A stretch of DNA of 64,000 bases from positions 736,001 to 800,000 of the forward strand of contig CAVSHB010000001.1 of assembly GCA_963727775.1 (NCBI GenBank), in the 5' to 3' direction. Below are positions 15,257 through 50,147 of the stretch, one piece after another. Position 1 is the stretch's first letter. Each line of letters begins with the position of its first letter. Source of the stretch: an uncultured Nitrospiraceae bacterium. GTDB taxonomy: Bacteria; Nitrospirota; Thermodesulfovibrionia; Thermodesulfovibrionales; SM23-35. The position numbers were made by a program, and so were the translations under genes. The notes beneath the pieces are model-generated. The model was not told where the DNA came from, did no database searches, and saw only the letters and a list, made by a program, of their open reading frames with translations.

Positions 15257-18200
15257 CTACCTCAGTTTCAAAGCAGGGTCGCCGAGGAGGTTATAGATAT
15301 CCATCATGAAGTCCTGGCCGCCTGCTTTGTTAAAGCCGTTAAGCGCCTTAAGGATAACGTCGCCGAGCACCGCTTTTTTGGCTTTGAACCCCGCCTTGAA
15401 GAACTCTTCATCGAGTATCAGGGCCTCTGAGTCGAATGACATCCCCGTGGGAGACCAGACAGCCGCCGCCCCGCCGCCGTTTTGCAGCACCAGCACTTCG
15501 CTCAGTGAGTTATAACCCGGTATGCCATACTCTCCCACAACACACGTCATGGCCGCCATTACAGGCAGTTTCGTGCTGTTGGTCATGTGGAAAACAACAT
15601 CGTCTTCTGTGAGAACGGGTTGCATGGCAAGGTGGTCTACCCCTCCGTGCCCTATGTAGTTTAAGAACACGATCCCCTTATTATTTATCCAGTCCATGAG
15701 CGTGTCGTGAGCTGTACCGACAGGCTGCCCGGCCAGGTAGATTGTCTCTGCGCTGTAGCTTTTAGTTAATAGAGCTAACACAGCATTGCTGTCCTTCGTG
15801 AAAGCCCCCGCGTCATCGGGCACATCGGCCAGCATGATGACCTTATTGCCGGTAGCGCCCTCGTATACGGCGATCTTGTTGATTACATTTGTCAGGTCCG
15901 AGGCTGTCAGCACAGGCAGCCTGCCTATGGCGATCCTCGGGACATGATCGTTTTCCACCTCTGCAAAGAGGTTGTCCGAAGGATAAACTCCAGATGGTGT
16001 GGAGGTCATAAGCGTCGGGATCAGGTTATCATTCTTGCCAAGGTTGTTTTTGTAGTCAAATGTGCCGTTGCCTGCGAGAACTACGTAACCGGGCGCTTTT
16101 TTCCAGCTATGATAGGCGTAGCTGAGAAAGTCTCTGATCGCCTCCGGACTGTATATGCCGTAATTGAATTCATTGAGGATCTCTTCAAGCAATACGGTTT
16201 GAACGGTAAGCCCCTGGTTGCTCCGGTAGGCGGCCAGTGTATTTGCCGCGTCACTGAGCTCGGCCGTGGTAATGATGATATAGTCTGCCTTGTTTTTATT
16301 GTCTTTGAGCCAGGGAACTGTGCCAGCCCTGACATTTGCCGTCGGAATAGGAATAACAGCGTCCTGCTTTAAGGCCAGATAAACGGCACCAGACGATGCG
16401 GGATTGAAGCTTAGGGCATAACCGCCGCCTGTAGAGGTTATCTTCGCGGCTGTTACGTTCCTGGGGTTCAGAGGGTCTGTGATATCGAAAAGCGATAAGT
16501 CAGGTCCTGTGAACCCGGTAATGGTCACCACCGGGTTTGTATTGTCGTGGCAGACCAGACTGTTGTTTGTGGCATGGTAAAGCCTCTGGTATGTCAGGTC
16601 GAATGAGTTTAAATAGAAGATGCTGTAATCCGTGTCCGGATTATCCAGCAAGCCTGTGATTTCAACTGTATTGCTGCCTTCATAAAGCTGGCCGGGACTG
16701 TAATTAATGGTGATTGTTTTGGGGTTCGGGCCGTACCATACTTTATCTGCTGTATCGGCTATCTGTGTGCCGTTGAGTTTGAATGAAGCATGGTGTTTGG
16801 TATTGGTGAACCCCTGCAGGTTTATACTCAGGCTGCCTGAGGCATTGGCCACACCGTTTGCCTGGATTGTGAAGGTCTTGACGCCATCGTCAGGGTCTCC
16901 GGCTACAATATAGTCCCAGAACCAGTAGTCTGATTCAGGGTCAGTGGTTATGACCGGCACTATGATGTTGTCCTGCTCCACATGGATAGTCTCTGTAAAG
17001 GTGTTATTTCCGGCAACGGGCTGGGGTCCTTTGCCTTTTACATTGACCATCTGAACTCCGTTACCCACGGCTAACCAGTAGATGTTTTCGTCTGTATAGT
17101 TATCATTGCTTATGCCTGTGCCGTAAAACAGTATGCCTGCGTTTCCGGCGTCGGGCATATAGGCTGCTTTTTGGTCTTTGTTCGTCAGCTGCAATCCATT
17201 GTTTTTTATCAGCTGTATTATTTTTTGCTCTGATATCCCCAATAGTGTTGCTATGGTCGAGGACGACAGAGAATAAAGACCATTTGTGCTTACGGGTATC
17301 TTTATCGATGTCCCGGTCTGTATCGAAGCGCTTCCGGTGCTTGCCGCTAAAGCTCTTATATGCACTGCCTGGGTTGCTTTGGGGACTGTGTTCTCTTTGG
17401 CCTTCCTTACATAGTTGGAATAAAGGTCCTGACCTGAATCGACGGTTGTTTTGTACGGGTCGTTACGGACGCTTATGTTGGAACTTCCGTCTGAGGCAAA
17501 AGACCTGACTACTGTGTTTGTAGATACCTTCGGAGGATTAAGCAATAGCTCGGGGTTTATCGCATTTGACCTGCCAAGGTTATTGATAGCGGTACCTGTT
17601 GTGCTAACAGTGAACGGTCCGTGTATGTTCTTTGCGCCGCCGGCTTCTACTTCCATGAGTAAGTAGGTGTAGCTTTGCTCCGGAGATGCCCCCTTGTCGA
17701 TAAGGCTGTAGGTGCCTCCCTGTAACGATGTAAGCAATGCAGGCAAAAGCCTCCGGTTTATGCGCTGGTACCCTCCGGTTGAGGCGTCCTTCCTGAATAG
17801 ATAAAACCCTGCCGTGCCTGACTCTGAGGAGGTTGTCCATTCGATTACCATGCTGCCGTTGTCTTCGTATGCGCGGAAATCAGATAGTACTACATGAGTC
17901 GGAGAGATGCTTGTACAACTCGTATTGTTATTGGAGTTGGAATCAGCTGGTGTGGATGAAGCCAGATTCGCGCAGTTTTGTATGGTCGTTTCCGTCTGCT
18001 GCACAATTGTTGTAAGGGTCAGGGTAACGGAACTCCCCCCCGTGATTGATGATGCTACTGTCCATGTGAGTGTGCCGCCGCCGGTGCTGTTGCAGCCGGA
18101 ACATGTAGCTGTGCCGGCGGTCGCTGTGTATGAGCTATATGCCAGGTTAGCAGGCAATGCGTCTGTAACCTGCGCCGCAGTGACAGTGGTTGTCCCGACA

Positions 18201-21200
18201 TTCTTTAAGGTGATAAGAAAGACAGCATGGCATGTGCCATCTGCATAACAAGGGGCGTCAATGCTCTGCACCGCCTTTGTTACCTGAAGATCGGTCGGAT
18301 AGGTAACAGGATTGCCTACAGATGCTTTAGTTGTGGCCGACTGGGCACTCGATACCGCCGCTTCGTTAAATATCTGAGTGACACCCGATGGCAATGAACT
18401 ATTAACCTGTACTTGGTAGGTTACTGTCATCGATTCGCCCGGGTTTAGAGAAAAGCCGTCAGCAGGCATTAACAGGTTAGGGGATACTCCGTTTGTAAGA
18501 GGGTTCGGATCTCCAACTCTGTTGGTCTTAGTGTCGTATCTAACTGTAAGTCGTTCGTCATTTGCCGAGGACCGGCTGTTTATGGCGGCTGTCTGATTAG
18601 CACCAGCTGTTCCTATAAGTATCACGCCGTGGTTATTGGCAGGGGTAGTTACCCAATTCTGAACGCTAGTAAGAAGATTGGCGGTATTTATCCCACGATA
18701 ACCGACAGGGCTTACAATGAACGACCCAAGAAGAGTAGGACTGTAATCTCCTCCTCCAGTGGTCCAGGTATTCGCACAGTTGTACTGATTCCAGGTTGCG
18801 CCATTACCGGTTCCTGCGCTGCAGACAGCACCAGGGTTTCTTGTGCCTTCATTCCAGTCACGGGTCAGGCCATATGCGTTGGCCGTAAGGTTTGCGTTGG
18901 CAGTTGAAACGTTAAATTCCATCAATGCGGACCCAACCCTTGCCGTAGAAAGAATGGATGATAGATCGAACTGCACGAGCGGCTGCCTCATCCTGCCGGC
19001 TCTGTACTGAATACTCATCGGTTCCACGCTGCCATAATTGTATGTCGGGTTCTGCTGATCGAGATATGTGTCTTTTACAGCATATAAGATAACTGACGAA
19101 ATTGTATTATTTGAGGGCGCGCCTTTGACAACGGTGCTGTTGTTTACATATGTCGTATAGGTCGGCAGCAAGTCGTAAACGGTTATGCCTGTCTGTGTTG
19201 TTGTGGCGCTATTATTGGTAATCGTGATGGTATAGGTTATAGTGTCTCCCGGGGCCACGTTGCCTGTACCTGCACTGCTGACTTTTGTCACCACCAAGTT
19301 AGAAACAGCAGCGGCGGCAAACCCGAAGTTGTTATTTGGATAAGTCGCATTCAATTGGGTGACAGACACCGTCTTTTGATCGCCCGGGGCAAGGGGCCAG
19401 TCATCGGTGGTCGTCAGCGTCTTGGAGATGAGTGGAGACTGAGTGTCGTCGATGCTCACAAAATACTTTCCGATTGAGGACACCTGGAAACTGTAATATC
19501 CGCCGGAGTCGGTGGTAGTGGTTGCGACAAGTGTATCCGTAGACGGATCGAAGATGTTATTACTGTTTGTATCACTGTACAGCTGAACCGTGACGCCGGA
19601 AATGCCGGCTTCTCCGGTATCCTGGCTTTTGTTGCTGTTCAGGTCGTTCCAGACAAGCCCGGTTATGGCCGATGTGCCCGGCGCGTTATAGCCGAAATCG
19701 GCGGTGAGGTCGCTTGTATTTAGATTGAGGAAAAGGACCGTTCTCTGGGCACCGGCAACCGAAGGCTGGTCGTCATTTGTTGTCAATACCAATCCGCTGA
19801 GAGGTGTCTGGCCATCGTCAATGCTCACAAAAAACCTTCCCTCTTCCGATACCTGAAACATATATTTGCCGTCTGCATCAGTGGTAGTGGTTGCAACAAG
19901 CTGGTCCGTTCCCGTATCGAGCAGTCCGTTCCCATTTGTATCTTTGTAAAGTTTAACGGTCACTCCCGCGATGCCCGGTTCCCCGATCTCCTGGATGCCG
20001 TTCCTGTTATAATCACTCCAAATCGTGTCGCCGATTTTACCCGGAGCGTTGTACCCGAAATTTGTACCGGAAACATTTGCGTTTAATACAGTCACCGCAA
20101 GATTACCCGCTTGCGCGGCAGTGGTAGTGCCGGCAAATCCGATCAGCTTTCCGTTGGCATCCTCAATGCTGATCGTGTAAGATCCGTTCGGGACGCCGGT
20201 GAAAGAGAAATTTCCGTATACATCGCTGGTAGTTACCGCCGCTACTACGTTGCCGGCTTTAAGAAGTGTAATCGTAACGCCTTTAATTCCCGGCTCACCC
20301 GGATCGAGCGCTGCGTTGTCATTTAAATCGAACCATACACGGTCGCTGATTGTATAAAGAGATGGGTTATAGTAACCGAAATCCATCATAACATAGCTGT
20401 TCCCGCCTGTTACGGTTATGGGGGCGCTGTTATTGGCGCCTATGCTCTGCGGTCCGACGGTCGGTGAATATCCTGACAATATTCCGGCGGTATCCGACTT
20501 AACCACATATGTTCCGGGAGAGACATTCGTAAAGAGATATATCCCGAAGGCATTGGTAGTCGCCCAAGCAACATGAACATTGCCGGGAGAGGTCACCAGT
20601 TCCATGGTAACGCCTCCAAGCCCCAATTCGCCCGGTTCCTGGATTCCGTTGTTATTTGCGTCGCTCCAGACGTAGTCGCCTATTATGGCTACATTTGATC
20701 CGGCATTCTTATAGCCAAAGTCGTTATTGAGAAACTGCTCCTGTCCGGTAATCACTATTGGGGAAGTTGGGTTATTGTTCGTGGAGATCGTTAACCCCGG
20801 AGGGAGCGTAGTCTCATCTACATAGACCCTGTATGTTCCCGGGAGGAGGCCGTCAAAGACATATTTCCCGTCTGTACCCGTGCGGGTCTCGAGATCCCCG
20901 GCATCAAAGACCCCGTTATTGTTGGTATCAAGCCACACTCTGACATTATAGAGGCCGGGCTCTCCGGTGTCATGGACCCCGTTAGGGACCGTGTCCAGCC
21001 AGACAAGATCTCCGATAGCACCGCCTGTACTCACCGGATCAATCGTTGTTGAGGAGGCAGGAGGAGCTTTTTCGTAACTCGTTGCGGTCGCCGTGTTCAC
21101 GATCCGTGTCTCATTTATAGGATTCTTGGCCTGGACGGTGTATGTTATCGTCATCGTTTCACCGGCAGCTAGGGCAAAGCCGTCGGCAGGCATGACGAGA

Positions 21201-23881
21201 TTTGGTGGAACTCCGTTTATCAGGTCAGGATTGCTCCCGCCGGTAATGTTATCTTTGGTTACAGTAACGGGCAGCTCATTTGTTTTTATCGCGACATTAT
21301 CTGCGTAGAAGTAATCGCCGGCATAGCCGTTAGAAACACTGAAACGCACAGTCGTATCCGATCCGATATAAGATGAGATATCATAGCTTTTTGTGCCCGT
21401 AGTCTGTCCGGTAATGTTATTGATAGTATCAATGACTGTGAGGCCGTGCCCGTTCCCGGACATTATTACCTGCACTGCATCTGCGGCAGCAACACTCGGA
21501 CTTGTGCGAAAGTCGAAACTTAATGTTGCGGACGTAAAATTCTGGGCCGGTATCCCTGTTGTCAGGTTTGCAGTTCTGGATGCCCATGATCCGGCGGCTG
21601 TCAGACGCAGCGAACCATTGATTACCTGGACATTCCCCGTCAATGGGTCCTGTGGGTTTCCGGCCGCGTCATTCTCACTCCAGTTTGCAGCCCAATTTTC
21701 CGGACCGTCATTATTGCTGTATAAAAGCTGATTAAATTTTTCCTTGACGAGTTTCTGCCTGTGACCTGTGACAGAAGTGCTGCTTGCAATGTAGTTCGTG
21801 CCGTCAGGTAACGGATCGTTTAACTGAATTCCTGTTTGAGATGTACTTGAAGCATTTGTTACGGTGATAGTGTAAGTAATATTGTCGCCGGGTTTTACTT
21901 TGTTCGGGGCTATACTTGAGGTCTTAAGAGTTTGAAGGACCCCCTGCTGGACAACGGAGTCGCGCGTATTAAGAAAAATCTCTGCCACTGAAGTGACCTT
22001 CGCATTATTGATTATATCGGTAGTGGTAGTGGGGGACAATGGATTATTCACCGTTGCCTGAAAAGTAAATAGTATGTCCTGCCCTGGTTGCAATGTGGAA
22101 GGGATAGGATATCCCGTCTCGTCGAGAGGGAAACGTGTGCCCGACGCATTGTCCGATAAGGCAGAGCCGTCCATAGTGGTTGTATTGGCAACATAGGTAG
22201 TATTCGTGTCGAGCGTGTCCAGGAGGTTGATACTGGATATCGGGACTATGCCGCTGTTATGCACCCTTATTGTATATTCCAATAATTCACCGGGATCTAT
22301 TCCTCCGTTACTGTTAAAGTCTCCTATAAGTTCGGCATATTTATAAGCGACTAAGGAAGGAAACGGCAGCACGGTTGTCCCGAGATCGAGTTCTGTCGGT
22401 TGGTTTGCAGAAGAGCTTCCGCCATCCTGTCCATAGGCAACGGCAATCCTCGTATTGTCGGTTGTATAGACCCTCCAGCCTGTATGATCGTAAGAGCCTG
22501 CAGGACCCGGTGAGAATATCTTTTGAGCTTCCAATGCCTGGACATTGATTGCAACATCGCAGTGGTTGCCTAACGAGTCAAGTATCGGACCGGTTGTGGG
22601 ATCTCCGTCATAGTCCACATAAACTGTAGTGGTGGTAACAGCTGTTACCCATATCGGGTTTGCATCTCTCTGTTTATCGGTAGTTCCAGGAGACCAGCCA
22701 ACGACTGCGGAAGTCGTCAGCGATGTCTCGGGGATCATATTAAAGCCCCAATTATGGACTGTATTGTTTATGTCGATTGCGGCAATCGCATAGAAGCTTT
22801 CACCACCTGTGGTGGTAAGCTTGGCGCCTGTTAAGTTACCTGGCGATGTCGGTGATAAGGGCAATTGAAAGAATCCGGCAGTATGAGCTAAGAGGGTTTG
22901 AGATACGGGACATCCGGCGGTACCTGCCATGCAGGTGACATTCACAGTGATTGAGGCGCTGTTTGGGTTGTAGGCGATTATGTTGTTATATACCATGGTG
23001 CCGCCTGTCTCCCTGGTCGTCGAAACCGGACTGTAGTAAGTGTTTCCCAAATTAGAAATAGGAAGCAAGCTATATAGTCTGCCATCGTATCCTGACGGCG
23101 ATTGTGCAGTTAACATATCGACTTGGACAGGACCGCCTGTAGATGTGACGGTGGCCCCCACTTTTATTCCTTCGACATAGAAGGTCTGGCCCTCATTCAA
23201 CGTCTGTGTGACATTGACGGAAAGGTCCCTGTTTTGCACAGTCACACTTGTGCCGTTCTTCTGCGCCGAAATAGAAAGCGCAGTATAATTGAAAGAGACC
23301 GAACCGTTATTAATTCCAACGGGCACTTCGAAATTGCTTCCCCATTTGTTCGTTTCGAATACCTCAACCGCTCCGGCCATCTGCGCGCCTATTGTCTGTG
23401 GCGCTCCATTCGGCCAGAAAGCACGGGTGACGACGATCTGCTGGGTCGCGCTTATCTTGTCCATGCCGTCATGATATAAGTTGCCCTGGTCACGAATTCC
23501 ATTTGCAACCGGAATATCGTCTGCGAAGGTGATGACCTGACCGGCATTAATGGTAATGACCTGTGTTGTGCTTTGTTGAGGGTTTGTTATGTCATCTTCG
23601 TAGCCATCTTCCCAGTGGTCATAGTAGATGGTTGTGCCGTCATATGTGCCGGTGATCGAGATAACGGAATGTATAGTGTCGGCTTCAGCTGTTGCAGTCT
23701 GCGCCCTCATCCATGTCCTGGCCTGGGGTTCGGTGATAGGGACATAAAACGTCTGGACAATTTGATTGGCTGCTTTAGCGTCGTGCGTACCGTAGAACGC
23801 AAAGATTATCAATGCCGCGACGGCGAAAAGTATTACGCGAAGGTTGATGCCAGGTGAGACATACTGGTCCATCTTTTTCAT
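15257..23881 (-). CDS. Giant secreted multidomain protein (about 2870 aa): DUF11/Ig domains, five SdrD B-like repeats, DNRLRE-type module, C-terminal C25 (gingipain-family) cysteine peptidase
   Basis: Signal peptide ending AKA. PG..I.YTITV.N DUF11 motifs. Repeats GDLVWLD, GDYVWSD, SDRVWFD, GDTIWSD, TGLVWND, each with ..GE.G..GV.V.L. C25 motifs ADYIII, GRLP, NYIGHG, MTC, YNLLGDPAL. ATG 23881 after SD GGAGG. Confidence 0.9.
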   Translation of the reverse strand: MKKMDQYVSPGINLRVILFAVAALIIFAFYGTHDAKAANQIVQTFYVPITEPQARTWMRAQTATAEADTIHSVISITGTYDGTTIYYDHWEDGYEDDITNPQQSTTQVITINAGQVITFADDIPVANGIRDQGNLYHDGMDKISATQQIVVTRAFWPNGAPQTIGAQMAGAVEVFETNKWGSNFEVPVGINNGSVSFNYTALSISAQKNGTSVTVQNRDLSVNVTQTLNEGQTFYVEGIKVGATVTSTGGPVQVDMLTAQSPSGYDGRLYSLLPISNLGNTYYSPVSTTRETGGTMVYNNIIAYNPNSASITVNVTCMAGTAGCPVSQTLLAHTAGFFQLPLSPTSPGNLTGAKLTTTGGESFYAIAAIDINNTVHNWGFNMIPETSLTTSAVVGWSPGTTDKQRDANPIWVTAVTTTTVYVDYDGDPTTGPILDSLGNHCDVAINVQALEAQKIFSPGPAGSYDHTGWRVYTTDNTRIAVAYGQDGGSSSANQPTELDLGTTVLPFPSLVAYKYAELIGDFNSNGGIDPGELLEYTIRVHNSGIVPISSINLLDTLDTNTTYVANTTTMDGSALSDNASGTRFPLDETGYPIPSTLQPGQDILFTFQATVNNPLSPTTTTDIINNAKVTSVAEIFLNTRDSVVQQGVLQTLKTSSIAPNKVKPGDNITYTITVTNASSTSQTGIQLNDPLPDGTNYIASSTSVTGHRQKLVKEKFNQLLYSNNDGPENWAANWSENDAAGNPQDPLTGNVQVINGSLRLTAAGSWASRTANLTTGIPAQNFTSATLSFDFRTSPSVAAADAVQVIMSGNGHGLTVIDTINNITGQTTGTKSYDISSYIGSDTTVRFSVSNGYAGDYFYADNVAIKTNELPVTVTKDNITGGSNPDLINGVPPNLVMPADGFALAAGETMTITYTVQAKNPINETRIVNTATATSYEKAPPASSTTIDPVSTGGAIGDLVWLDTVPNGVHDTGEPGLYNVRVWLDTNNNGVFDAGDLETRTGTDGKYVFDGLLPGTYRVYVDETTLPPGLTISTNNNPTSPIVITGQEQFLNNDFGYKNAGSNVAIIGDYVWSDANNNGIQEPGELGLGGVTMELVTSPGNVHVAWATTNAFGIYLFTNVSPGTYVVKSDTAGILSGYSPTVGPQSIGANNSAPITVTGGNSYVMMDFGYYNPSLYTISDRVWFDLNDNAALDPGEPGIKGVTITLLKAGNVVAAVTTSDVYGNFSFTGVPNGSYTISIEDANGKLIGFAGTTTAAQAGNLAVTVLNANVSGTNFGYNAPGKIGDTIWSDYNRNGIQEIGEPGIAGVTVKLYKDTNGNGLLDTGTDQLVATTTTDADGKYMFQVSEEGRFFVSIDDGQTPLSGLVLTTNDDQPSVAGAQRTVLFLNLNTSDLTADFGYNAPGTSAITGLVWNDLNSNKSQDTGEAGISGVTVQLYSDTNSNNIFDPSTDTLVATTTTDSGGYYSFQVSSIGKYFVSIDDTQSPLISKTLTTTDDWPLAPGDQKTVSVTQLNATYPNNNFGFAAAAVSNLVVTKVSSAGTGNVAPGDTITYTITITNNSATTTQTGITVYDLLPTYTTYVNNSTVVKGAPSNNTISSVILYAVKDTYLDQQNPTYNYGSVEPMSIQYRAGRMRQPLVQFDLSSILSTARVGSALMEFNVSTANANLTANAYGLTRDWNEGTRNPGAVCSAGTGNGATWNQYNCANTWTTGGGDYSPTLLGSFIVSPVGYRGINTANLLTSVQNWVTTPANNHGVILIGTAGANQTAAINSRSSANDERLTVRYDTKTNRVGDPNPLTNGVSPNLLMPADGFSLNPGESMTVTYQVQVNSSLPSGVTQIFNEAAVSSAQSATTKASVGNPVTYPTDLQVTKAVQSIDAPCYADGTCHAVFLITLKNVGTTTVTAAQVTDALPANLAYSSYTATAGTATCSGCNSTGGGTLTWTVASSITGGSSVTLTLTTIVQQTETTIQNCANLASSTPADSNSNNNTSCTSISPTHVVLSDFRAYEDNGSMVIEWTTSSESGTAGFYLFRKDASTGGYQRINRRLLPALLTSLQGGTYSLIDKGASPEQSYTYLLMEVEAGGAKNIHGPFTVSTTGTAINNLGRSNAINPELLLNPPKVSTNTVVRSFASDGSSNISVRNDPYKTTVDSGQDLYSNYVRKAKENTVPKATQAVHIRALAASTGSASIQTGTSIKIPVSTNGLYSLSSSTIATLLGISEQKIIQLIKNNGLQLTNKDQKAAYMPDAGNAGILFYGTGISNDNYTDENIYWLAVGNGVQMVNVKGKGPQPVAGNNTFTETIHVEQDNIIVPVITTDPESDYWFWDYIVAGDPDDGVKTFTIQANGVANASGSLSINLQGFTNTKHHASFKLNGTQIADTADKVWYGPNPKTITINYSPGQLYEGSNTVEITGLLDNPDTDYSIFYLNSFDLTYQRLYHATNNSLVCHDNTNPVVTITGFTGPDLSLFDITDPLNPRNVTAAKITSTGGGYALSFNPASSGAVYLALKQDAVIPIPTANVRAGTVPWLKDNKNKADYIIITTAELSDAANTLAAYRSNQGLTVQTVLLEEILNEFNYGIYSPEAIRDFLSYAYHSWKKAPGYVVLAGNGTFDYKNNLGKNDNLIPTLMTSTPSGVYPSDNLFAEVENDHVPRIAIGRLPVLTASDLTNVINKIAVYEGATGNKVIMLADVPDDAGAFTKDSNAVLALLTKSYSAETIYLAGQPVGTAHDTLMDWINNKGIVFLNYIGHGGVDHLAMQPVLTEDDVVFHMTNSTKLPVMAAMTCVVGEYGIPGYNSLSEVLVLQNGGGAAAVWSPTGMSFDSEALILDEEFFKAGFKAKKAVLGDVILKALNGFNKAGGQDFMMDIYNLLGDPALKLR

Positions 23882-24066
23882 TTTATCCTCCCAATTAGAG
23901 GGCAAGGAATTATGCGCATGTTAATAGGCCATGATGAGTGCATGGTCATTTCGATTATCAATTTGTTCTGCATAAAATTCTCCCTTCTTTCATCATAATC
24001 GGATGAAAGATATTTATATATTATATTCTAAATAATTTAGATTATAATTTCTATACATTAATATAT

Positions 24067-46307: not shown

Positions 46308-46399
46308 TCACAGCCCTGTGAGACTTGCAAAGTTAGTGGAAACAGCTATTCTTAATAATATGGGGAATATAGCCCGCTTAATTTATAAAATTTGAGGGC

Positions 46400-46510
46400 G
46401 CCGACAAATACAGTATTTGCGCTCATTCTCGGCCCGGTACAAATCGGGCCTCCGAGGTAAATTCTTTCTTTGAAAGAATTTAAAGCCGCTTAAATACTGT
46501 ATCTGTCGGC
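46400..46510. repeat. 111-bp MITE-like repeat, copy 2 (inverted relative to copy 1)
   Basis: Reverse complement of 35741-35851 with few mismatches. Confidence 0.85.
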
Positions 46511-46540
46511 AATCTTATAATGTAGGATAGGAATAAGACC

Positions 46541-47581: not shown

Positions 47582-48019
47582 TCACGAACCGCTCTTTTGC
47601 CTCGCTTGACTCTGAGACTGTCGAGGATCTTCTAAATAAATAGTCGAAGAAGAGTAACAACAGACTCCCGTGCGACAGGCCATAAAATGCAGGCTCTTTT
47701 TGTTTCATTCATCTACTTATCCGCAGAACCGAGAAATTGAAACAAATGTTTATTCATCCCTATTTATTGAGGTATGTGCAACATCATCTGAAATTTCTAA
47801 TACACCTTCTACTGGTTTATTATTGTCAAGAACTTTTTACGGAGTAACTCCCCTCTGATAGAGACAAGCCACTACTAAGGTTTCCTGGCTTCAATGGTTT
47901 CTGCTTCGTTCTTTGCCCCCAGATCCCTTGTCTCATTACGTAATCCATTCTGCATGTTTGAGAGCCAATTCTGAAAAAGCGGCTTCGTAGAAAGCTATAG
48001 GATCGATTATCTCAGCATG

Positions 48020-48310
48020 ACCCATATTACGGTATCCCCTGGATTCGGCGTTTCTCTTTTTTATGCCTCCTCTTGGCTCCTTTCACTTAACCTTATATCA
48101 ACCTTCTCACTTCCATCTCCATTAGGAGGAAGTCACTTTAGTCTTTGGTGTAGCACCTTGCCTGACACTGGTAATTCGAGGGTCTCAACAGAGCCCTGAC
48201 CTTGCTTAATCGAGACTAAGGTGCAAGCGGGGAGTTACAAGCTCCGCATGAAGGTCGGCTCAGCCGCCTTAGGTATCAGGTCGGTAATCTCCCCGCTTAC
48301 ACGCCAATAC
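48020..48310 (-). ncRNA. Putative bridge/seek RNA of the IS110 element (limits approximate)
   Basis: Long stem 48221-48238 / 48284-48302; segments identical to the flanking target DNA (see findings). Confidence 0.6.
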
Positions 48311-48316
48311 TATAAG

Positions 48317-49579
48317 TTATGCAGCCTCCTGGTATTGAAGTGAGACTATAGAGAAATCTTTTTTGTATACACTTTGGTCACGCACAACAGCAAATATGAT
48401 TCCAAGAAGTTTTCTTGCTACGGCGATCAGCGCCTTGGTCTTAGGCATGCCCCGCTCAAGGTACTTTTGATATTGATCGTGCATTATTCCACCTCTGCGG
48501 ACTGTGTTGAGCGAGGCAAAGTACAAAAGTTTACGCAGCAGGTGACGGCCTCGCTTAGATATGCGTCGCTTCCCCTTGTATTGGCCAGAACTGATCTCAT
48601 AAAGGTCCAGCCCTGCGAGCTTTAGGATCTCGGAGAGGGTTTGAAACTTCCGAAAATCACCCACTTCACCGATAAGACCGGCAGTGGTAACCTCTTTAAT
48701 CCCCTTTATCGAGAGGATCGAGCCACTGTATGGAATCTGCTTCAGATAATACCCCATTTCCTTTTCCAGATCCCCGGTAAAGGACTCAGCAGCGTCCATG
48801 GCGATAAGAAGTTCTCTTATCTCACGTATAATGCTCGTCATGCCTTCGGTTACACCTATAGAAGCTGTTGCAGCCTCATAGAGGGCCTTGGCGCGATCTT
48901 CCTTCAGCTTTCCGCGGCTGACCTTATTGATCGTTGCACTCAAATTATCAAGACCGTACGCGACAATATCCTTGGGTGCTGGGCACTGCGCAAGGAGATA
49001 TCGGGCAGTCAACGTCTTTACATCCTTCATTACCTGCAAAAACTCAGGAAAGATAATCGCAAGCAAGCTCTGGAGCTGGTTCACCAGGGATACATAACGC
49101 TCGTTGCTCCTTTCCCTGGCCTGAGTGAGCCTCCTGAGTTCGGCCGCTGGACCTTCCGGGATCACTACAGTCAGGGCGTGGCCAAGTGCCATAATATCAG
49201 CGATAACCTTTGGGTCTTTCTGGTCGGTCTTGTTCGGCGAATTACCCTGAAGCTCCTTAAGCCTCTTAGTGTGCATAGGGCTTACTTGTACCATGTGTAC
49301 GCCTCTCGCACGCATGAAATGAACAAGAGGTTCGGCATACGGCCCGGTGGACTCGTATCCAAAAACAATATCTTCGATGTTATGGAGCTTTTTGGCATAA
49401 GATACACGATCCCAGAACTCTTGGAAACCCCTGCCGTTGTTCCAGAAGGCAAAGGGCTTCACATCGCTTCCGTCCGGACAGCGCCAGTATCCAAAATGTC
49501 TATCCTTTCCCATATCAGCTGTCACAATCATCGTTCTACCATTGACTACTTTAAACTTTTTTGTTTTACTCTTCTTCAT
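48317..49579 (-). CDS. IS110-family DEDD recombinase/transposase
   Basis: AD.GK, YESTG.Y, KTDQKD, AGL....SSG, ISKRG...LR, A.ARKL. Confidence 0.95.
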   Translation of the reverse strand: MKKSKTKKFKVVNGRTMIVTADMGKDRHFGYWRCPDGSDVKPFAFWNNGRGFQEFWDRVSYAKKLHNIEDIVFGYESTGPYAEPLVHFMRARGVHMVQVSPMHTKRLKELQGNSPNKTDQKDPKVIADIMALGHALTVVIPEGPAAELRRLTQARERSNERYVSLVNQLQSLLAIIFPEFLQVMKDVKTLTARYLLAQCPAPKDIVAYGLDNLSATINKVSRGKLKEDRAKALYEAATASIGVTEGMTSIIREIRELLIAMDAAESFTGDLEKEMGYYLKQIPYSGSILSIKGIKEVTTAGLIGEVGDFRKFQTLSEILKLAGLDLYEISSGQYKGKRRISKRGRHLLRKLLYFASLNTVRRGGIMHDQYQKYLERGMPKTKALIAVARKLLGIIFAVVRDQSVYKKDFSIVSLQYQEAA

Positions 49580-50147
49580 GGCTATACTCCTTTCTTTGGT
49601 TTGGATTTAACCAACTCGCACATTGGTCTGAATCAAGAAAGAGTATAGCCTTCTTTAACAAGGCCTAACTCTACAACAATATAGCAAGCTCCGCATTTAC
49701 GCGGAGCGGTAATTCACGAAGAGTTTGTCCCGAACTACGCACTGTACAATCGAAGCGGAGATTTCTGCTACTCGTCGGGCTGACACCTCTGAGAGATAGC
49801 CTGCAGTGTTAGTTATTTTTGATAATCAATGAAAAACGTGACCACTACACGGGAAATAAGGTTTCGCCCTGAAGTATGCACAGCCTTGGAGAGCTGACAA
49901 GGTAGTCTCGCGATCTGGACTTCACCGCGAACCAACACTGGCACTACTTTAACAGAGTAACAATTATCGGGCAAAACCTTCAGTCTTCTCAGGGACCTGA
50001 GCTTGAAAAGTACATGTCGTTATCGGCACTTGAGATGGATAGGCAAAGCCGGACTAAACAACTTTTCTGAACTTTACACTGTTTATGTTTGATATAATTA
50101 TGCTGATTACCTGGGAATTGCATATAAGAAAAAAGGGGAATATTGAA

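Follow-up and report, generated by a model that had tools for sequence, protein, structure and literature searches.

Two described systems lie closest to the locus reported here. IS621 has a bridge RNA of two-loop topology (PMC11208160; see also PMC11208158 and PMC13626964), and elements of the IS1111 group (ISEc11, ISKpn4, ISPa11, IS4321/IS5075 and ISPa25) carry their RNA region downstream of the gene (PMC11187229). We analyzed a 64,000-nt stretch of an uncultured Nitrospiraceae bacterium (assembly GCA_963727775.1, contig CAVSHB010000001.1, positions 736,001 to 800,000 of the forward strand), hereafter the window, within which all unprefixed positions are counted. It holds a complete IS110-family element at 47812..49690 on the minus strand (1879 bp including both 2-bp cores, with ends taken from copy comparison and motifs). 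Our reading, to which we assign a probability of roughly 90%, is that this is an intact element in four copies, and that a region of about 150 nt downstream of its transposase gene is a predicted bridge RNA for RNA-guided recombination at the 2-bp core. The reading is built on the ends, the core, the copies, intact catalytic residues, a conserved two-loop fold, and covariation of the guides and of one handshake base with the flanks. A preliminary description made from the letters of the stretch had proposed an IS110 RNA-guided recombinase with downstream, readable guides for both strands of its site, and the covariation of guides and flanks supports that proposal.

Like IS621, the element encodes a protein with a DEDD domain and a Tnp serine, and its RNA has two simple internal loops, target then donor. 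In both systems the core lies within the guides, with CT on the strand repeated by the 5′ guides; handshake bases follow the 3′ guides, short ATA/TAT-like subterminal symmetry is present, and a promoter is predicted at the junction. By our own count, total pairing is about 27–29 bases; IS621 has 28, and the median reported by a recent survey is 25 (10.64898/2026.10.21.760802). Several features depart from IS621. The RNA lies 3′ rather than 5′ of the gene, and the donor site is turned around with respect to the gene, with AG as the core of the coding strand. In the 5′ target guide, a purine predicted to bulge out precedes a conserved C, which is opposite a G conserved in the target, and only one handshake position per loop covaries. 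The canonical IS621 layout, with upstream RNA and the bottom-strand guide first on the coding strand, was not found, but short subterminal repeats and a non-IS1111 protein were. On the plus strand the guides follow the IS621 order around the CT core, so that, measured against IS621, the donor site is inverted and has changed sides on the RNA; this flipped donor site therefore gives an IS1111-like layout to a protein of the long IS110 branch.

The likeness to the IS1111 group consists of the downstream RNA, the placement of guide 1 (top-strand complement) 5′ of guide 2 (bottom-strand match), as described in the text of PMC11187229, and a predicted promoter across the circle junction. In contrast to that group, subterminal repeats here measure 4–6 bp rather than 7–17 bp (PMC11187229), the protein has 420 aa rather than 330–350 aa, and the donor loop is simple, whereas many IS1111 RNAs are multi-loop (PMC11208160). 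IS110-branch proteins with a 3′ non-coding region are already in print as the green group of Figure 1b in PMC11187229; the text of that paper gives no guide order or RNA model for them. ISPpu9 shares the AG dinucleotide at both ends (PMC12288879), and its downstream Ssr9 RNA was described as not required for transposition.

Element Ends, Core and Copies

Besides the window copy, the genome (G000) contains copies at C1:345356-347234, C2:300496-302374 and C4:233683-235561, which differ from it by one or two internal bases. Near-identity common to all four spans about 47803 to 49695, so positions 48003-48018 are internal to the element. The preliminary description had placed the ends at AGCA repeats and had itself named true ends elsewhere as evidence against its model; all four copies extend past these repeats. 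The AGCA at 48014 and the "left target" read there (TCGATTATCTC) lie about 190–200 bp inside the element, and the empty site and circle junction reconstructed from them correspond to no boundary of the actual element.

The core dinucleotide lies at 49689..49690 at the left end and at 47812..47813 at the right end, in both cases CT on the plus strand and AG on the coding strand. A CT core had been proposed earlier, and it is present, but not on the element strand as then stated. At C1:~489995, an empty paralogue of the insertion site carries CT only once, at the core position. Genome contigs supplied 75 relatives and metagenome contigs a further 80, the best of 241; with the four own copies this made 159 loci. 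A 2-bp core without longer duplication was found in all four own copies, in the empty paralogue, and in the 131 of 159 loci with both ends found. The left-end motif was present in 152 of the 159 and the right-end motif in 136, many loci without a motif being truncated contigs. Eight relative genomes contain several near-identical copies with the same end motifs, and the flanks of these copies are often members of one repeat family. Subterminal repeats in the window element are 4 bp or 6 bp long depending on register; repeats of at least 7 bp occur in one of 131 loci in the 7/4 register and in none in the 7/7 register.

Both ends also carry halves of a predicted junction promoter on the minus strand, TTGACA (47824..47829, conserved at the right end) and TATATT (49678..49683, conserved at the left end). 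Joining the ends at the core would put TTGACA 17 nt from TATATT, a spacing set by the end search patterns, the evidence being the conservation of the two halves themselves. No RNA data set was listed among the sequencing runs holding the element, and an end-to-end joint was not among the contigs of 4 of 20 runs; neither outcome counts as evidence in either direction.

Predicted Bridge RNA and Target Guides

The region of about 150 nt 3′ of the gene is predicted to fold into two arms, each with an internal loop and a central hairpin. The region is complete in 135 loci; 84 of their sequences are non-redundant, and 64 of these were aligned. Two-sided changes were found in 32 of 41 pairs, and the observed values were reached by none of 500 shuffles; the actual fold paired 97% of cells, compared with 35–52% in slid controls. 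The target-loop region (48221..48302, minus strand) contains helices 1 and 2, with two-sided changes in 14 of 14 and 4 of 8 pairs, respectively, and its 14-bp stem (48221-48234/48289-48302) closes the internal loop. The predicted donor-binding loop (48153..48224, minus strand), a simple internal loop with a central hairpin, contains helices 3 and 4. Our model of the RNA (R1) places it downstream of the gene in all five family members of the genome; weak opposite-strand matches of R1 overlap the same place as the downstream RNA. Strong matches number only five in the genome, all inside family elements. R1 found nothing significant beside Bacillota transposases of 31–34% identity, beside locus L075 or beside IS1111-type references, and no Rfam family matched the region at gathering level.

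Target guide 1 (48272..48283, minus strand) lies in the 5′ arm and consists of guide bases 48281-48274 followed by two core-facing bases, with a predicted bulged purine and an invariant C before it. Its seven to eight variable bases are the complement of the flank that follows the right end on the coding strand (47803..47811, plus strand), the outermost base of which is a G on the coding strand that is conserved in the family. Guide 1 matched its flank at 5.77 of 7 positions, compared with 3.39 after shuffling (65 distinct guides from 118 loci, scored at the best of two registers in data and null alike), and wobble-type differences were the commonest class of mismatch. Beyond the guide, opposite a purine, a G occurs in 46 of 56 well-matched sites; the purine is probably bulged, with the invariant C ahead of it pairing with the conserved G. 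Target guide 2 (48241..48248, minus strand), identified by covariation, comprises 5 nt and the AG core; the next base, the C at 48241, is a likely handshake base. Six variable bases and the AG in the 3′ arm match the flank beside the left end (4.5 of 6 vs. 1.9 shuffled; 46 distinct guides, 139 loci). Five positions of that flank covary (49691..49695, plus strand), and the sixth, 49696, does not (9 of 46).

Guide-target covariation across homologous elements had been suggested earlier as a check, and when both guides are taken together they follow their flanks at 10.2 of 12 positions, compared with 4.49 after shuffling and a maximum of 6.44 in 10,000 shuffles (25 guide sets that differ from one another at four or more positions, drawn from the 114 loci for which both flanks are present). 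The target spans about 15–16 bp here (5 + core + 8, plus the conserved G) and 14–15 bp in most relatives. Among loci L016-L155, many flanks lie in GGGAGGG hairpins or in CGCAGAG-type repeats with a period of 8 or 9 nt, and guide 1 changes register by one base between sites of these types.

Donor Guides, Handshake Bases and Proposed Cycle

The donor loop carries AGCAAG (48201..48206, minus strand), the complement of positions 49688-49683, with which the left end begins, and ACCAG (48167..48172, minus strand), which corresponds to the last three bases of the right end and the core and is followed by handshake base 48167. Both change in step with the ends in a compensatory manner in locus L064, and ACCAG changes with the right end also in L067 and in the element at C2:272832-276046. 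The latter (L193) is a second family member in the genome, 46–48% identical, with the same left end and different target guides that fit its own flanks. A 460-aa opposite-strand open reading frame (ORF) resembling another transposase splits its transposase gene.

Handshake positions have been described for IS621 (PMC11208158). Here, base 48167 equals the first base of the host flank. Across the family, the nucleotide that follows ACCAG agrees with the start of the flank in 57 of 73 cases (34.2 shuffled), with no clear signal at donor-loop handshake positions 2–7. Past the target-loop AG comes a C, as at the start of the left end, in 88 of 96 guides, and a four-base extension past this AG is complete in only 7 of 96. 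A long handshake had appeared possible from the window itself, where 7 nt after ACCAG match the flank of the C1:345k copy, one of them as a wobble, and where the left end is matched by the 4 nt past the target-loop AG. It was rejected: in relatives only the first base of each stretch holds, and the rest is stem or chance.

We propose that one RNA loop likely selects the target and that the other likely binds the joined element ends. Following work on IS621 (PMC13626964), seekRNAs (PMC11187229) and CazIS110-1 (10.1101/2025.10.25.684509), the element may excise or copy out to a circle, and the circle junction would form a sigma-70-type promoter driving the transposase and the RNA. The protein–RNA complex would pair both loops and exchange strands at the core, and handshake pairs would favor insertion.

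Weighing the Alternatives

Several observations weigh against the bridge RNA reading. Three of the four own copies, including that of the window, share the same two adjacent guide 1 mismatches, and an empty site with one guide 1 mismatch exists at C3:558807. Guide 1 needs two registers (49 vs. 16 of 65), the bases with which the 5′ guides face the core are mostly non-canonical, 12 of 114 loci reach no more than 8 matches over the 12 positions, and the shuffles leave some relatedness in place. Three elements supply the donor covariation, and in L013, L018 and L043 the donor changes are uncompensated. Where guide and handshake conflict (n = 19), the flank follows the handshake in 9 cases, the guide in 6 and neither in 4; given this split, we claim no independent role of the handshake in target choice. 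A handshake that overrides the guide had appeared as 25 vs. 10 on redundant loci, and was dropped when removal of redundancy left the 9, 6 and 4 just given.

The model of the preliminary description, in which the ends lie at the AGCA repeats, one target guide is 12 nt long and the other is split and skips four target bases, retains next to no probability. The identity on which it drew is real: 48238-48249 equals 49685-49696 and lies inside the stem-closed loop, and over 2000 shuffles of the 41-nt junction region the longest match was 10 nt, so that 12 nt was never attained. The proposed order of the heptamer and AGCAAG is correct as well, the RNA strand at 48213-48201 reading UCGAUUA-AGCAAG. 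Yet the 12-mer is not all flank. CAAG at 49685-49688 is the element's own left end, and the RNA segment comprises five guide bases, one non-covarying base, the core, the handshake base and three further bases. Four of the 12 nt plus AGCAAG match the conserved end of the element, and the copies run about 200 bp past 48014. Nor is UCGAUUA-AGCAAG a second target guide. AGCAAG is a donor guide and UCGAUUA a variable stem strand, which together account for the "split", and the proposed longer guide is not supported; the true second target guide is 48274-48281, our guide 1. The 7-nt match to 48003-48009 is at chance level (1672 of 2000 shuffles of the RNA region against the rest of the right end gave at least 7 nt), the heptamer precedes AGCAAG in 4 of 145 loci, all own copies, and in the truncated relative L157, and the full four-base extension is as rare as noted above.

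It is also conceivable that the target loop alone is functional, as a short seekRNA, with the protein recognizing the ends and the second loop structural or accessory. SeekRNAs of 70–100 nt with only target matches supported movement (PMC11187229), RNA with the target-binding loop only made up 90% of CazIS110-1 transcripts (10.1101/2025.10.25.684509), and the donor guides of our family are almost invariant, so that conservation alone cannot show pairing. However, compensatory donor changes occur in three elements, and the base after ACCAG covaries with the host flank, so the second loop must contact DNA; excision and integration of CazIS110-1, according to the same source, needed the full-length RNA. 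We consider this account quite improbable. A protein that recognizes repetitive extragenic palindromic (REP)-like repeats, with an RNA that resembles the flanks through copied flank DNA and guides nothing, would fit the many relatives found in repetitive sequences and the three own copies that mismatch guide 1. It is hard to reconcile, however, with two opposite-strand guides at fixed scaffold positions that track 25 unrelated targets while ends and scaffold stay constant, or with the prevalence of wobble-type differences in guide 1, and we hold it to be very improbable indeed.

Off-Guide Flank Bases in Three Copies

Among the four own copies, that at C1:345k alone matches guide 1 fully, and the truncated relative L157 has the same fully matching flank. 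The 16-mer with the two off-guide bases of the other copies is expected 0.0012 times per genome, and no empty copy of it was found. For an exact repeat family as target, which may yet exist, no empty site within two mismatches of the window's reconstructed 17-mer was found either, only degenerate repeats around AGGTG with several upstream variants. Flank halves appear shuffled among the copies, and two empty paralogues of the C4 copy's flank differ from it at the four bases next to the core. The two-base mismatch has the geometry of a tandem G.A pair, and tandem G.A pairs are unusually stable. Native repeats combined with mismatch tolerance are a simpler account of the shared off-guide bases than copying of donor flanks.

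That second account, flank co-conversion, in which the element would overwrite the first bases of the target flank with bases of the source site, is in our view unlikely, though it deserves mention. It would proceed by direct junction-to-target strand transfer or by branch migration, and it would explain both the shared off-guide bases and the differing empty paralogues of the C4 flank. If co-conversion were true, bridge recombination would not be strictly scarless. Our literature searches returned no description of it. A second or orphan guide RNA for the off-guide flanks was rejected: all five strong RNA matches lie within family elements, and the guides of the C2 element at 272832-276046 fit its own flanks.

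The flanking repeats have features of their own. A repeat family at the left-end flank has members at 49689-49916, C1:489768-489994 and C1:345312-345357; it ends in a hairpin with the target half-site as the 3′ arm, and the two arms change together between copies. Two unrelated IS110 elements (G000:C3:463786 and C1:813620-813700) end near the same degenerate AGGTG-containing repeats.

Transposase Classification

The gene at 48317..49579 (minus strand) encodes a 420-aa IS110 transposase/recombinase with a DEDD RuvC-like domain and a Tnp domain, matching PF01548 and PF02371 above cut-off and NF033542 at 189 bits (cut-off 140). The DEDD residues are D22, E76, D119 and D122, and S331 aligns to the catalytic serine loop of IS621; among 119 homologues these five are kept in 117, 118, 119, 119 and 119, respectively, the misses being gaps. 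Similarity to the IS621 protein is weak (E = 1e-7; 420 aa vs. 328 aa in the PDB chain). The alignment with IS5075 covers 143 C-terminal residues only, at 25% identity, and similarity to ISPa25 is likewise C-terminal only. An approximately unbiased test rejected a single clade with IS5075, ISPa25 and a third IS1111-type protein (p = 0.0025). It used a quick tree of 26 proteins, after removal of ten redundant or long-branch rows of a first tree, which lacked true IS1111 references and is superseded. The transposase grouped with ISEc20, ISMav6, ISBth13 and ISBth166 at 94% in the Shimodaira–Hasegawa-like approximate likelihood ratio test, under the tool's starred level.

The preliminary description had implied membership of the IS1111 group. 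Neither of the two features defining that group, long subterminal repeats and a protein related over its full length, was found. In this element the RNA lies downstream and orders its guides as in IS1111, its predicted fold resembles that of IS621, and the protein falls outside the IS1111 clade.

Across the family, proteins are 44–100% identical, and the ends and RNA scaffold are almost invariant. The nearest relatives outside it are unnamed transposases of 390–430 aa at 30–34% identity, and named elements among the plasmid matches listed reach at most 26% identity (ISBth13). In the literature we found no description of this clade, although figures and supplements beyond those available may cover it. 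A search of the readable parts of the supplements to PMC11208160 did not find the end motifs, and a review (PMC13604230) added nothing further on the clade. The clade may figure among the 86 bridge-RNA models of the recent survey (10.64898/2026.10.21.760802).

Right-End Segment and Other Features

The right end of the window element measures 508 nt, compared with a median of 255 nt in 136 loci; the upstream non-coding part is about 110 nt long. The excess lies in a long non-coding segment (47830..48135, minus strand), about 250 nt longer than that of most relatives. This extra segment is shared with L077 and L157 and absent from most relatives. It contains a copy of a dispersed repeat of about 65 nt (about 47974-48040), which holds the "left target" of the preliminary description. 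The repeat is degenerate with a conserved ATCGAT center and gave no match in an Rfam search. Further copies lie at C1:1077868-1077946, C1:138403-138472, C1:1147084-1147139, C3:289273-289339 and C3:118497-118612 (G000); four are identical (C4:54037, C4:178736, C1:487335 and C1:1510408), and one copy directly follows a different IS110 gene. A 29-codon ORF at about 48021-47932 was noticed by eye. What remains of the truncated relative L157 (G095:C116:3367-3792) is the right end together with the extra segment and the donor loop (83% identical); its target loop and transposase gene are lost.

Elsewhere in the window, a repeat of about 150 bp resembling a miniature inverted-repeat transposable element (46370-46518) lies upstream of a radical SAM/SPASM gene and has more than 50 BLAST matches over all four contigs, and an ORF of 2882 aa occupies 15257-23905 on the minus strand. 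A tblastn search of the genome listed 21 IS110-like matches of several types, the four copies included.

Implications

Bridge and seek RNAs are established, and the mechanism itself comes as no surprise; a long or split guide would have been a novelty, but none was found. What this locus adds is a well-resolved natural family in which two target guides have been retargeted many times on near-invariant ends and scaffold. Its rules are readable, namely a target of 5 + 2 + 7/8 bp, a conserved G beyond a predicted bulge, and one covarying handshake base, and they make the element a candidate orthogonal programmable recombinase. The family also indicates that RNA position and guide order, which often separate IS1111 from IS110, can decouple from protein clade and subterminal repeats. 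The order that seems reversed can be interpreted as that of an IS621-type RNA whose donor site is flipped.

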